23,484 nucleotides of DNA from a bacterium (GTDB taxonomy: Bacteria; SAR324; NAC60-12): NCBI GenBank assembly GCA_965233585.1, contig CBDDTI010000599.1, forward strand, positions 1-23,484, read 5' to 3'. The position numbers and the translations under genes were made by a program. Positions within the stretch are counted from its first letter, which is position 1; each line of letters starts with the position of its first letter. The notes below the pieces were generated by a model. It was given only the letters and a program-made list of their open reading frames with translations. It did no database searches and had not been told where the DNA came from. Below are positions 3,351 to 13,088 of this stretch, one piece after another.

Positions 3351-3739
3351 CAGCTCTGTACCAAAGAGTTTTAACAGTATTTAGTTCAAAACGCAGGGGG
3401 TCATCGCTCTCATCATTGGTGGATGGCCAACGAAGAGGCCAATGATGAGAGCTGTAAACGTACCTGCAGGCAGTTCCTGGGCATGAGAAGACATACAGCT
3501 GGAATGCCGCTCAAGATGTTCGACCATGATTGTTTCGGTTTGAGGTGCTGCAGGTTGCCGCAATCTGAACCAGATCCGTGAATCAAGACCTGAATTGAGT
3601 GACTGTACTTTTGAAGTCTTGGTCCTTGGCTTTCTAAGTAATTTGCCAAGTGCACCTTGGATGGAGCAATTCCGAACTTCAACAGTTCTAACTAGAAAAC
3701 AGATTGAGAGCAGGATATTCTGCTGAATGTTCAGGTGTG
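3351..3739 (+). repeat. 5' pseudo-LTR (389 bp)
   Basis: Colinear with 12700-13088 (offset 9349, no indels, ~15 mismatches by manual count). Contains the end of the RT reading frame. Confidence 0.95.
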
Positions 3740-4145
3740 CAATCAGCCGAGTTTCTGTCAAAGGCCGGTGGTGATCCTGGTATGCCAGGCTTTTGAAATG
3801 TTCAATTGAAACGGCCTCTTTTGGCTCACACACCACGGATTGATTTGGACAATGGGCTTGTCTATGAGTCTGGAATGGATTTGGACAATATGCTTGCCGC
3901 TGAGATCATGTTCATGTTGAAACAAGCCGCCTTCGGACAGACAAAATCCGAAGTTATATCTGGAGTTGATTGGGTGTGATTACAGCATCTGAGAATGAGA
4001 GGCTACTTGTAAATTCCTCTCCTCACTGCTATTGAATTTCTCTTGTGAAACATGCACCGATCTGTCGATCGGCATTGATTGAGTTTTACAGCATTGGGTG
4101 TTCCTTTCATTTTTCAGATTTAACTCACGCTCACCCAGTGTTGCC

Positions 4146-5314
4146 ATGCCGTCGTCTGTGGAGGAGTAGCATATTTCTTTTGTTGCTGGAAATTTGTCTG
4201 GCACCCGCGGTGCTGCGGCATCGGCACCTTTGCCTGTTTCACAGTCATCAGCGGCAGTGGCTACACCAAATCAACCAGCCATCGTTGTTTCACCTGCAGT
4301 ACCGGCTCAGAGAAGTGATCCTGTTGAACCAACTCCCAGACAAGCTCCTGCTCGACCAACTCCAAGTCAACCTCCTCGGAGCATACGTGATGTTCGGTCT
4401 AGGGGACCTGACCGCCGTTCGTTGAGTCCACCACCAGGAAGCTGTTGAGCAAAGTACTTGACAAAAGCAGCACTGATAGGAAACTGCGGATCCTGATGGT
4501 GTCGCAGCCAGGACCGAATATTGGCCTGGTTTTCTGTCACACCTGTAGACATGACCTGTTCATTTGTGTGTGTGATACATGACCTGTTCATTTGTGTGTG
4601 TGCTGCAGAAACAAAGTTCCGATTTGGAACCGGTCGCAGTCCAGGATACATTGGCGTAAACACATTGAACAGTTCCTGGGTAGGTTGACCAGAAACTGCA
4701 CCCAGTCGAGGCACAGGAACATCACAACAACATCAGGCAGGTGTGATGGCTCAACAACTTTTGGACTTGAGGCTCTCAGTGTTTGATCCGCAACAACATA
4801 TTCATATCGATGATGAAACTTTAAAGACTTATTATGTCCTTACTGCTCAGTTGTCAGATCGGCAGATTCCTCCGCAAACCCGCGCGGCGCCAGCGCTCAA
4901 CATTGCGGAGGTGGTACACCTGCATTTTGTGCATGCGTCGTCCATGGGTGGCATTGTCCGTATCTTGCAGAATTGCCTTGTTGCACCCTCAAGGCTTCAT
5001 TTTGAATCCTCTCAGTCCTTCTTTCGTCTTGCTGCAAAACCCACCTCTGACATCAGGTGGGATCGTACTGAACGTCTCATACACAATGCTTGGAAGTCTT
5101 CCAGAACACCTCCAACATCCTGGTGCTTGGTACTGCTTGGGGAACGGGTCAAGTTGTATATTCAGGTGGTGAAGAAGCGTGTTTGCAACAGACCTTGCAT
5201 CATGGTGCGGTCCATCATAAGAATGGACGCATGTGGATAGTAAACACCGACTCTCACTGCATTCAAAGCTTGGCATTTAGTACTGATGCTGAGGATCCAG
5301 CGGGTACTTTGTAG
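4146..5314 (+). pseudogene. PLE ORF1 (disrupted): Pro/Ser/Ala-rich N-terminus + globular C-terminal domain, possibly ART-like
   Basis: gccATG at 4146 is in frame with ORF 4194-4448, with a premature TAG at 4167. It continues via frameshifts through ORFs 4743-5240 and 5090-5314 and is followed by a T-rich spacer. Confidence 0.55.
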
Positions 5315-5547
5315 TAAATAGTCACGCAAACATTAATTTCTTGGTATTGCACGTTTTTGACTTTGTACAGTTTGAATATTCAGCTTGCGTGGTCTCAAAA
5401 CGTTGAATTTTTCACCTTCTCATTTCCGTTTGTGTGTAGGTCACGTACGCTGTCTTCTTTCGTCGGTGTTTTTAGTCTCCAAGTTTTTTCGGCAATCTGA
5501 CAAGTTTTGGCCCAAATTCTCCCGTGGGTTTTGCTCTCTCATTCGTC

Positions 5548-10534: not shown

Positions 10535-12315
10535 TCTCTGTGTGTGAAAGTGTTTGTTATAAAGGCTTCTTTCTGTGTCTGTGTGTAATGGCATCTGTGT
10601 GTAAAAGCCTATGTGTGTGAAGTGTGAAATGTCTAGTGTCTGTGTGTAAAACCTTCTGTGTGTAAAAGTCTCTGTGTCTGAAAGTGTTGGTGTGTAAAAA
10701 GCTTCTGTGTAAAAGCGTCTGTGTGTAAAAGCCTCTGTGTGTAAAAGTGTCTGTGTGTAAAAGCGTCTGTGTGTACAGGAGTCTCTGTGTAAAAGCTTCT
10801 GTGTGTAAAAGCGTCTGTGTGTGAAAGTGTTTGTGTGTAAAAGCGTCTGTGTGTAAAAGCGTCTGTGTGTAAAAGCGTCTGTGTGTAAAAGCGCCTGTGT
10901 GTAAAAGCGTCTGTGTAAAGGAGTCTGCGTGTAAAAGCTTCTGTGTGCAAAACTGTGCGTAAAAGCCTCTGTGTGTGAAAGTGTTTAAAAGCCTCTGTGT
11001 GTAAAAGCGTCTGTGTGTAAAGGAGTCTGTGTGTAAAAGCTTCTGTGTGTAAAAGCGTCTGTGTGTAAAAGCGTCTGCGTGTAAAAGCTTCTGTGTGTAA
11101 AAGCGTCTGTGTGTAAAAGCGTCTGTGTGTAAAATCGTCTGTGTGTAAAAGTCTCTGTGTGTAAAAGCCTCTGTGTGTGAAACTGTTTGTGTGTAAAAGC
11201 GTCTTTGTGTAAAAGCTTCTGTGTGTAAAAAAGCGTCTGTGTGTAAACGCTTCTGTGTGTAAAAGCGTCTGTGTGTAAAAGTGTCTGTGTGTAAAAGCTT
11301 CTGTGTGTAAAAGCGTTTGTGTGCAAAAGCGTCTGTGTGTAAAAGCGTCTGTGTGTAAATTCTTCTGTGTGTAAAAGCGTTTGTGTGTAAAAGTGTCTGT
11401 GTGTAAAAGCTTCTGTGTGTAAAAGCCTCTGTGTGTGAAAGTGTTTGTGTTTAAAAGCATCTGCGTGTAAAGGAGTCTGTGTGTAAAAGCTTCTGTGTGT
11501 AAAAGCGTCTGTGTAAGCGTTTGTGTGTAAAAGCCTCTGTCTGTGAAAGTGTGTGTGTGTAAAAGCTTCTGTGGGTAAAAGTGTCTGTGTGTCAAAGTGT
11601 CTTTGTGTAAAAGCTTCTGTGTGTAAAAGGGTCTGTGTGTAAAAGCGTCTGTGTGTAAAAGCGTCTGTGTGTAAAAGCGTCTGTGTGTAAAAGCGTCTGT
11701 GTGTAAAAGCGTCTGTGTGTAAAAGCGTCTGTGTGTAAAAGGGTCTGTGTGTAAAAGCGTCTGTGTGTAAAAGCGTCTGTGTGTAAAAGCGTCTGTGGGT
11801 AAAAGTCTCTGTGTGTGAAAGTGTTGGTGTGTAAAAGCTTCTATGTGTAAAAGCGTCTGTGTGTAAAAGCGTCTGCGTGTAAACGCTTCTGTGTGTAAAA
11901 AAGCGTCTGTGTGTAAACGCTTCTGTGTGTAAAAGCGTCTGCGTGTAAAAGCGTCTGTGTGTAAAAGTGTCTGTGTGTAAAAGTCCCTGTGTGTAAACAT
12001 GTCTGTGTGTAAAGCGTCTGTGTGTAAAAGCGTCTGTGTGTAAAAAAAGCGTCTGCGTGTAAACGCTTCTGTGTGTAAAAGCGTCTGTGTGTAAACGCTT
12101 CTGTGTGTAAAAGCGTCTGCGTGTAAAAGTGTCTGTGTGTAAAAGTGTCTGTGTGTAAAATTCCCTGTGTGTAAACGTGTCTGTGTGAAAGCTTCTGTGT
12201 GTAAAAGCATCTGTGTGTAAAAGCGTCTGTGTGTAAAAGCGTCTGTGTGTAAACGCTTCTGTGTGTAAACCCTTCTGTGCAAAAGCGTCTGTGTGTAAAA
12301 GTTTCTGTGTGTGAA
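10535..12315. repeat. 16-bp minisatellite (CTGTGTGTAAAAGCGT), ~110 units
   Basis: Directly visible. It is the source of the spurious 562-aa and 451-aa ORFs. Confidence 0.97.
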
Positions 12316-12471
12316 AAACAATACGAAGGATACGATGCAAACTAGTGTCTTGATTCTACTTGTCTCGACTGCCTATCATACATCTTTAATACATTGTCTT
12401 GTAATATCGTGTCTCAATACTAACAACAGAAGACTCTGCTCCTCTACGCTCTCGGGCCATCCGTCGTCTAG

Positions 12472-12794
12472 TTGAACCATGGCAAATTCGTGATGCATGT
12501 TCAGCTGGCAGTCTTCGTCTCCGTTTGCCGAGCCTCAAGTGGAGGGCCCACTTGATCAGACGCTATAGTTTTCCACGTACAGAAGTGTCTGGCAAGATAG
12601 ACGAACTTATTGCACTTTATCAAAGCAAAGGTTTCTCATACTACGATTGTTGCAGGGCCGTCAAGATAACGTGGGCGCTGTCCCTGTTTGTGTGCGCGTC
12701 AGCTCTGTACCAAAGAGTTTTAGCAATATATAGTTCAAAACGCAGGGGGCCATCCTTCTCATCATTGGTGGATGGCCAACGAAGAGGCCAATGA
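12472..12794 (+). pseudogene. PLE RT thumb / C-terminus (continuation after the family B insertion)
   Basis: EPWQIRDACSAGSLRLRLPSLKWRAHLIRRYSFP...LIALYQSKGFS is in frame with the FLG segment once the insert is removed. The R..R...L...G(Y/F) pattern is typical of PLE thumbs. Stop TGA at 12792-12794. Confidence 0.8.
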
Positions 12795-13088
12795 TGAGAG
12801 GTGTAAACGTACCTGCAGGCAGTTCCTGGGTATGAGAAGACATACAGCTGGAATGCCGCTCAAGATGTTCGACCATGATTGTTTCGGTTTGAGGTGCTGC
12901 AGGTTGCCACAATCTGAACCAGATCGGTGAATCAAGACCTGAATTGAGTGACTGTACTTTTGAAGTCTTGGCCCTTGGCTTTCTAAGTAGTTTGCCAAGT
13001 GCACCTTGGATGGAGCAACTCCGAACTTCAACAGTTCTAACTAGAAAACAAATTGAGAGCAGGATATTCTGCTGAATGTTCAAGTGTG
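12700..13088 (+). repeat. 3' pseudo-LTR (389 bp)
   Basis: Direct repeat of 3351-3739. Confidence 0.95.

Follow-up and report, generated by a model that had tools for sequence, protein, structure and literature searches.

A dead copy of a probable Chlamys-like Penelope-like element with additional open reading frames between its terminal repeats

What kind of mobile element occupies the middle of contig CBDDTI010000599.1 (assembly GCA_965233585.1), and which of the open reading frames (ORFs) lying ahead of its reverse transcriptase (RT) belong to it? The window analyzed here is the whole stretch of 23,484 nucleotides, filed under the bacterial lineage SAR324, and an original prediction had seen in positions 3351 to 13088 a multi-ORF Penelope-like element (PLE) in an apparently dinoflagellate genome. 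Among transposons, PLEs are the nearest kin of telomerase, and the mechanism by which they integrate is poorly understood. We conclude, with a probability of roughly 0.78, that the region holds a single, dead genomic copy of a PLE from the branch with an N-terminal endonuclease (EN), closest in design to the Chlamys group. The interest lies in the family rather than in this fossil copy: a novel ORF2 in frame with the enzyme gene across a readthrough-type stop, an invariant YVDN motif in the RT, and possibly a new host group.

One unit inside a minisatellite array

Self-comparison of the window revealed a sole long dispersed repeat, a direct repeat of 405 bp (3335-3739 versus 12685-13088; 95.6% identity) that brackets ORF1, ORF2, and a gene with EN, CxC, and RT parts (EN-RT). 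The repeat consists of the final ~36 codons of the RT gene, whose stop lies at 12792-12794, together with the 3' untranslated region (UTR). As it opens 36 codons before the RT stop, it matches a pseudo-long terminal repeat (pseudo-LTR), i.e., a 5'-truncated upstream tandem copy. The unit reads, from left to right, 3'-end copy (pseudo-LTR), 5' region, ORF1, ORF2, EN-CxC-RT, and 3' end, and 3351-13088 comes to ~6.5 kb once an insert in the RT gene is subtracted. Both outer flanks are a TG-rich minisatellite with a 15-bp unit (2909-3341 on the left, 13096-13249 on the right; Tandem Repeats Finder), and therefore the whole unit sits inside one repeat array; the insertion site of this single copy is a TG-rich array of 15-bp units, and one insertion cannot show a bias. 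Rfam returned no hammerhead at the gathering score across the window and none at E ≤ 10 in 3200-4700 or 12300-13300.

Much of the original prediction is borne out by this layout: the terminal repeats enclosing ORF1, ORF2, EN, CxC, and RT, the length of ~6.5 kb, the pseudo-LTRs, and the lack of a canonical hammerhead in the repeat regions. Its assignment to the Naiad/Chlamys-type PLEs is also supported and can be narrowed to a Chlamys-like element by the pseudo-LTR, the TG-rich site, the missing hammerhead, the CxC, and the telomerase-like RT. Its statement that all parts are co-oriented fails at the head of ORF1, which lies on the minus strand, and it had missed that the copy is dead, that the ORF1 head is inverted, that ORF2 and EN-RT share a frame across TGA-CTAG, and that motif C of the RT reads YVDN. 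The features of the region are as follows.

2909..3341, no strand: left flank minisatellite, 15-bp unit AGAGTTGTGTGTGAA (Tandem Repeats Finder; repeat families D15/D16)
3335..3739, plus strand: left pseudo-LTR, 405 bp, 95.6% identical to 12685-13088
3740..4438, plus strand: presumed 5' untranslated/promoter region of the full-length unit, without coding evidence
4439..4733, minus strand: inverted segment with the ORF1 head, ATG at 4552 (tblastn, five of six ORF1 relatives; breakpoints from the sequence)
4737..5314, plus strand: ORF1 body, with a frame change near 5102-5135 and the conserved end ...DAEDPAGTL followed by a stop (six relatives; alignment A3; tblastn)
5548..6662, plus strand: ORF2, gag-like candidate (27 relatives; shared stop in alignments A2 and A5; tblastn)
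6660..6701, plus strand: ORF2 stop as TGA CTA G, then 13 sense codons in frame to the EN-RT start (translation; sequence)
6702..9228, plus strand: EN-CxC-RT gene, broken (collinear tblastn with relatives of 850-990 amino acids [aa]; motif alignment)
9229..12452, no strand: insertion in the RT gene, three tandem arrays (RT alignment gap; Tandem Repeats Finder)
12453..12794, plus strand: C-terminal end of the RT protein, stop at 12792-12794 (tblastn, 27 relatives over 12400-12700; translation)
12685..13088, plus strand: right repeat copy, the native 3' end (last ~36 codons and 3' UTR; self-comparison)
13096..13249, no strand: right flank, 15-bp-unit minisatellite as on the left (Tandem Repeats Finder; families D15/D16)

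Between the repeats, plus-strand stop-to-stop frames lie at 4689-5240, 5376-6662, 6759-7661, 7582-7923, and 7893-8579, with smaller pieces to 9214, and nine plus-strand ORF pieces of the window matched no relevant Pfam family. The 5' region (3740-4438) drew no tblastn match from 202 fetched proteins nor from the six ORF1 relatives, and ORFs 4036-4425 and 4170-4448 matched no known family in Pfam.

The EN-RT gene and its decay

The RT frame (7893-8579, 228 aa) has 332 representative relatives at E ≤ 0.001, and the EN ORF (6759-7661, 300 aa) has 26. In tblastn, relatives of 850 to 990 aa are collinear with the window from 6734 to 9213 and resume from 12453 to 12662, with a conserved EN domain at 6813-7580, upstream of the RT. 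Because the relatives are collinear, the three frames reported in the original prediction are one gene split by six frame changes; five in-frame stops also lie inside the aligned pieces. For one relative, P0056, the aligned pieces fall as follows, with frames counted relative to 5376.

From 6734: frame 2
From 6813: frame 0
From 7585: frame 1
From 7920: frame 0
From 8657: frame 2
From 9118: frame 1
12459-12662: frame 0

EN-RT starts at ATG 6702 with a conserved N-terminus, MTDISILRKFF…. Just past this start, at 6718-6748, a 14-bp stretch (TTCTCCGCAAGTTT) is duplicated exactly and in tandem (2.2 copies), which accounts for the first frame change. No ORF of the element is intact, and this copy is dead. 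Its motifs can still be placed on the plus strand by motif alignment.

6990-7013, plus strand: YIGST motif
7176-7235, plus strand: E...N motif
7825-7845, plus strand: CxC (AACSCFQ)
8196-8249, plus strand: DH at the DK motif position
8418-8465, plus strand: RT1/2
8628-8680, plus strand: RT-A
8906-8941, plus strand: RT-B
9038-9055, plus strand: RT-C, RYVDNR
9163-9180, plus strand: RT-E, FLGF

The RT alignment halts at 9213-9228 and picks up at 12453, with 4 to 9 query residues aligning to both edges. As the relatives are collinear on either side, 9229-12452 is a ~3.2-kb insertion in the RT gene, which is the nested insert that had been predicted. It comprises arrays with units of 30 bp (9265-9985), 72 bp (10049-10509), and 16 bp (10638-12316), followed by ~130 bp of unique sequence, and this tandem-array block entered the RT gene later than the element formed.

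The insert edges (9181-9228 and 12453-12480) share a short RT stretch, HIRRIISYKLIP versus RAIRRLVEP, which looks like an imperfect duplication made on insertion. The 16-bp satellite of the insert, (GTCTGTGTGTAAAAGC)n, recurs inverted at 16841-18000 and 22424-22700 with 72-83% identity and is evidently common in this genome. A recurrence of the 72-bp array at 18330-18668 was suspected and found no blastn support at E ≤ 1e-5.

A telomerase-like RT behind a putative GIY-YIG-type nuclease

An AlphaFold2 (AF2) model of P0056, built from a 22-sequence alignment, reached a pLDDT of 86.6 and a pTM of 0.77. When it was compared with the PDB by Foldseek, ranks 1 to 16 were all TERT (E values of 3.2e-9 to 3.6e-5), with retron, DRT, and group II intron RTs behind, a ranking that expresses likeness of fold and not phylogeny. 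RVT_1 was detected in nine of the 22 relatives at E ≤ 1 (best 2.8e-6), always under the Pfam gathering score.

The landmarks of the alignment follow one another in the order EN, CxC, an H..D(H/K)...CP..Y block at the position of the DK motif, RT1-2, A, B, C, and E. The CxC between EN and RT is present in 21 of the 22 aligned relatives, the 22nd having a gap there. Motif A Asp and motif B Gln are separated by 86 to 99 residues in every relative, an IFD-sized spacing (~89 codons in the window). The EN core and the stretch preceding it carry no conserved Cys/His pairs in any of the 22, indicating that the CCHH and CX2-5CxxC fingers are absent, as in Chlamys. On the strength of this order and the published diagnosis (PMC8557442), we file the element as Chlamys-like.

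The EN motifs (VY...YIGST...R..R...E...E...N) fall on a predicted beta-beta-alpha-alpha-beta-alpha unit at residues 86-190 of P0056. In the ESM Atlas, the nearest clusters (score, 0.97; proteins of 900-1080 aa) have GIY-YIG PF01541 in 25-38% of members and RVT_1 in some, and serve as a lead only. Judged by motifs and predicted topology, and without a profile match, the nuclease would be of the GIY-YIG type.

Two motifs set the family apart. Motif C is RYVDNR in all 22 aligned relatives and in the window (9038-9055). A motif C could be recognized in 45 of the 150 listed RT hits and read YVDN in 44, YADN in one, and YxDD in none. At the DK position (H..D-x...[YF]CP), the same 150 hits gave 110 instances, comprising 92 DH, 17 DK, and 1 DR; the window has HHADHE. 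In the supplement of PMC8557442, motif C is KYVDD in Penelope, RYVDD in Poseidon, RYIDD in Nematis, and RYLDD in Chlamys of Chlamydomonas, and "VDNR" is absent from the available supplement text, in which long cells are incomplete.

By analogy with described PLEs, in intact members of the family the telomerase-like RT would copy element RNA at a nick in TG/CA-rich repeats. The GIY-YIG-type nuclease would make that nick, and partial tandem copies arising on integration would give rise to the pseudo-LTR.

A conserved protein encoded upstream

The ORF2 frame (5376-6662) has 27 relatives at E ≤ 0.001, with 37-82% identity. The protein starts at ATG 5548 with MSCQW and ends at a TGA at 6660-6662; frame changes occur near 5630 and 5700, two other frames hold the first ~50 codons, and the coiled-coil helix lacks 12 codons (tblastn). 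In the family, the protein has ~390 aa and runs from a Trp-rich head through a strongly conserved core (…NPLTVPIGLLTRHGASEFGLRLLSEGRF…), a long predicted helix, and a basic stretch of low complexity to a helical C-terminal domain. The stop position is identical in all 18 ORF2-only sequences (alignment A2), and clusters of ORF2 relatives hold up to 84 near-identical members, which fits a repeated element. Over 71 codons compared with a locus found in genome contigs (L001), nonsynonymous divergence (pN) was 0.27 and synonymous divergence (pS) was 0.89, with synonymous sites saturated, which fits purifying selection.

L001, the one locus returned by an ORF2 profile search of genome contigs, is a 505-bp contig under a marine alphaproteobacterial metagenome-assembled genome. 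It codes for residues 1 to 119 of an ORF2 relative (62% identity) and is too short for a linkage test. It is most likely eukaryotic carry-over in a bacterial bin; other PLE hits labelled bacterial have been read in the same way (PMC8557442).

The shared stop, together with the fused proteins described below, supports ORF2 as a part of the element, with no chance capture. By analogy, its upstream position, predicted helix (residues 181-212, a coiled coil), and basic KRRR patch would make it, most likely, a gag/ORF1p-like partner in RNA binding or assembly. A zinc knuckle or RRM was not found in it by Pfam, PDB, or fold searches.

The join between ORF2 and EN-RT

The ORF2 stop lies 39 bp from the EN-RT ATG at 6702, in the same frame and with no further stop between them. 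The layout of canonical EN+ PLEs, a single ORF, does not apply here, as ORF2 has its own conserved stop and ORF1 lies upstream. Of 208 fetched sequences, 4 unite an ORF2-like with an EN/RT-like part in a single protein (P0026, P0075, P0088, and P0097). P0026 has a W at the position of the ORF2 stop and reads on into EN, with 11 of the 13 spacer codons identical to those of the window. The other three are only 27-38% identical to the window, and in P0088 the ORF2-like and EN-RT parts form a continuous prediction of 1331 aa. In a quick in-family tree of 69 RT pieces, P0075, P0088, and P0097 fall in three lineages outside the well-supported 10-row clade of the window and inside a 28-row subtree (SH-aLRT, 92); the other half of the tree (30 rows) holds no example of the fusion. 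The presence of fused proteins in divergent lineages shows that the ORF2/EN-RT neighborhood is old within the family.

The sequence UGA CUAG has been cited as a readthrough-favoring consensus, from mammalian genes (10.1101/2021.04.18.440353). Based on the shared frame, the TGA-CTAG context, and the 13 sense codons, we propose a readthrough fusion: a part of the ribosomes would read through TGA-CTAG and produce an ORF2-EN-RT protein in a gag-pol-like manner, the alternative being an independent start at ATG 6702.

A genetic code in which TGA encodes W was considered and rejected, because two in-frame TGA codons of the RT align to K/G or Q/S in relatives and because the 18 ORF2-only relatives end at the ORF2 TGA.

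ORF1 and its inverted head

The ORF1 frame (4689-5240) has six relatives at E ≤ 0.01, one of them 98% identical and one representing a 35-member cluster. Residues 1 to 40 (MSTGVTENQ…KYFAQQL) are encoded on the minus strand from 4552 to 4424, with upstream matches reaching 4663, and residue 41 onward is encoded on the plus strand from 4737, with the conserved end at 5311. As the two halves are contiguous in five of the six relatives, the copy in the window has undergone an inversion of ~295 bp (4439-4733).

The inversion breakpoints carry a near-repeat, GCTCAACAGCTT / GCTCAACAACTT (4439-4450 and 4749-4760). Next to the ORF1 ATG, 28 bp are duplicated in tandem (4549-4602).

HTH_Tnp_Tc5, a Tc5/CENP-B-type helix-turn-helix (HTH), was detected on the ORF1 head in two of the six relatives (E = 1.4e-3, under the Pfam cut-off); there was no other Pfam match to ORF1 and nothing meaningful in PDB sequence profiles. 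ORF1 is possibly DNA binding. It was seen adjoining ORF2/EN-RT in the window copy only and is probably a lineage-specific accessory gene.

Weighing the alternatives

Could the region instead be a composite in which a solo PLE 3'-end fragment, an unrelated element with ORF1 and ORF2, and a 5'-truncated PLE are adjacent by chance? The window is rich in satellites and rearrangements, and a single copy was examined. ORF2, however, stops only 39 bp short of EN-RT and in the same frame, the two parts are joined in four other proteins, three of them at 27-38% identity, and EN-RT starts at its conserved N-terminus and is not 5' truncated. The composite is thus largely refuted for ORF2, and as an account of the whole region we regard it as highly improbable. 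A different challenge is that the EN-RT family is not a PLE and arose when a nuclease was fused independently to a telomerase-like RT, and here several results weigh against our assignment. The class is drawn from features and fold likeness, and the tree spans the family itself. GIY-YIG was matched in Pfam by none of the 22 full-length relatives and none of 11 EN-only sequences, nor was it found in PDB sequence profiles (EN-RT and EN only), NCBIfam (EN only), or PHROGs (EN-RT), so that of the predicted N-terminal GIY-YIG the position upstream of the RT and the motifs stand and a profile match does not. Whole-protein fold searches of the EN-RT model returned polymerases only, and a viral fold library returned RNA-dependent polymerases only and was of no help on the nuclease. 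Judged from sequence, the family also departs from PLE signatures, with mostly DH for DK and YVDN for the YxDD of published PLE alignments. Finally, the pseudo-LTR, the target preference, and the linkage of ORF1 each come from one genomic copy. On the other side stand the ordered succession of EN, CxC, DK-position motif (a true DK in 17 of the 110 instances), RT with an insert the size of an IFD, and thumb, which is the Chlamys diagnosis of PMC8557442, along with the pseudo-LTR, the TG/CA repeat target, and the missing hammerhead; an origin outside the PLEs accordingly seems improbable to us.

For the two upstream ORFs, the balance is closer. It is nearly an even prospect that the frame is shared by coincidence and that EN-RT is translated apart from ORF2, with ribosomes reinitiating or initiating internally at ATG 6702, much as they do for LINE-1 ORF2. 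All 18 ORF2-only relatives stop at one place, EN-RT relatives have their own Met ~20 to 50 residues before the conserved FF(I/L)..(I/V)H, a shared frame has a 1-in-3 chance, and the 131 nucleotides from the ORF2 stop fold no better than shuffled RNA (z = +0.52), i.e., with no stable structure. The four fused proteins are gene predictions, of which at least P0097 omits a portion of EN, and to argue for a shared frame from fused predictions is to use a biased sample. Readthrough is favored by the cited consensus at the stop, by 13 post-stop codons that are stop free and of which 11 are identical in P0026, and by the uninterrupted 1331 aa of P0088. As to the protein itself, the AF2 model of ORF2 is all-helical, with a long helix at 181-212, but poor overall (pLDDT, 57), and neither Pfam, PDB profiles, nor fold searches (PDB at E ≤ 0.001) gave a match, nor did the ESM Atlas give a usable hit, so that "gag-like" is an analogy. 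ORF1 may be foreign to the retroelement, a separate gene or mobile element lodged in the 5' region, be it of this copy alone or of a local subfamily; we hold this to be a serious but minority possibility. ORF1 has six relatives versus 27 for ORF2 and 332 for the RT piece, blastp of its relatives against the 208 fetched proteins matched only those six, no fused prediction contained an ORF1-like sequence, and the region has a rearrangement of its own in the inversion at 4439-4733. Its place between the left pseudo-LTR and ORF2, co-directional apart from the inverted head, argues the other way, as do the 35 near-identical members in one relative's cluster, which suggest a repeated element, and the near-equal lengths of the contigs that hold an ORF1 relative at 98% identity (8742 bp) and an ORF2 relative at 99% identity (8741 bp), perhaps one and the same contig. 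Of the two extra element ORFs in the original prediction, ORF2 is therefore upheld by its 27 relatives, shared stop, and fusion in 4 of 208 proteins, whereas ORF1 has six relatives and is linked to the element in the window alone.

Sequence around the element

No recognizable gene was found in the flanks of the element. A 41-bp tandem repeat (GATGTCGCCAAGTGCCACGCCTGCCCCGCAAAACGAAGGTT) forms two arrays at 13257-13535, immediately to its right. Short-period arrays (9-15 bp) with a strong C-over-G skew fill 1-770, where a minus-strand frame of 199 aa runs off the left end and is probably a by-product of the repeats. The segments at 15000-16800 and 22000-23484 are very AT rich (19-30% G+C), with low-complexity A/T repeats, the rest of the window having 41-52% G+C. 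An Rfam SCARNA7 match at 3243-3364 (23 bits versus a 65-bit cut-off) overlaps the TG-rich minisatellite and is taken as a low-complexity artefact. A dinoflagellate spliced-leader motif had 0 matches at ≤3 mismatches, a result that is uninformative on the host.

Significance of the family

Taken at its widest, the evidence might mean that the window samples a large undescribed Chlamys-type branch with a Y(V/A)DN RT, a coiled-coil ORF2 joined by TGA-CTAG readthrough, and an added ORF1, maybe with an HTH; we offer this tentatively and think it rather unlikely to hold in full. Such a family would extend what is known of the structural variety of the Chlamys group, and a conserved upstream protein, a possible readthrough, and a family-invariant Asp-to-Asn change would give handles on PLE expression and on the polymerase. 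If the host is a dinoflagellate, it would be a further record in TSAR and the first alveolate PLE, beyond the green lineage, slime moulds, and a single stramenopile report. In public protein sets, the relatives of ORF1 and ORF2 are unnamed or called "hypothetical protein," and they should be masked as transposon genes.

Comparison with known systems

The Chlamys elements (Craig, Yushenova, Rodriguez and Arkhipova 2021, PMC8557442) resemble the present one in having the nuclease ahead of the RT with a CxC between, in lacking the CCHH and CX2-5CxxC fingers, in the conserved R, E, and N after YIG, and in the long spacing of motifs A and B (IFD). They share with it the pseudo-LTR, the missing hammerhead, and, for the one copy here, an insertion site in CA/TG repeats, their own bias being toward microsatellites, (CA)n or (C)n. 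The length found here falls within their 3.3 to 8.2 kb, and tandem repeats inflate some of their copies as well. They differ in motif C, which is YLDD in the Chlamys of Chlamydomonas versus Y(V/A)DN in all 45 readable relatives here, in the DK motif, which is mostly DH in the present family, and in that a conserved, unannotated ORF2 lies here 39 bp upstream of and in frame with EN-RT, in addition to ORF1. One Chlamys element, Chlamys-2_cBra of Chara braunii, does have an extra upstream ORF that was read as gag-like; it carries a zf-CCHC knuckle and the element a canonical 3' hammerhead, neither of which was found here (PMC8557442). Given this ORF and Chlamys lengths of up to 8.2 kb, the family is not a new kind of element, and the view that its extra ORFs are unprecedented was overstated.

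The Chlamys hosts named in the same paper are green algae, Chara, spike mosses, and Physarum, and its accessible text and supplement make no mention of dinoflagellates or alveolates (PMC8557442). A search of literature titles and abstracts likewise found no Penelope-like element of dinoflagellates, Symbiodinium, or Symbiodiniaceae. The brown alga Ectocarpus has Chlamys-type PLEs in the TSAR supergroup; the 2025 paper describes three PLE/Chlamys families and states that PLEs were unreported in TSAR until then (PMC12477816).

Naiads, from animals, have the same permuted EN-RT order, CxC, IFD, lack of a hammerhead, and microsatellite targets, but they keep the CCHH and CX2-5CxxC fingers, use DKA, prefer (TA)n, and consist of a single ORF of ~1000 aa in units of 3.4 to 4.4 kb (PMC8557442). 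The EN-minus Athena and Coprina elements offer a parallel to ORF2, an upstream coiled-coil ORF1 that may be coupled to the RT ORF by recoding; they lack EN, reside at chromosome ends, and would use a frameshift with a pseudoknot, in contrast to the in-frame stop proposed here (PMC8557442). A likeness to the altered motif C is found in nematode BEL/Pao (Belpaoviridae) RTs, which have YVDN through the same Asp-to-Asn change at the last position of the motif, its effect on activity being left open in those papers (PMC554778, PMC9094657). BEL/Pao elements, LTR retroelements that encode RNase H and integrase, are unrelated to the present family (PMC554778, PMC9094657), and the YVDN common to both is convergent.

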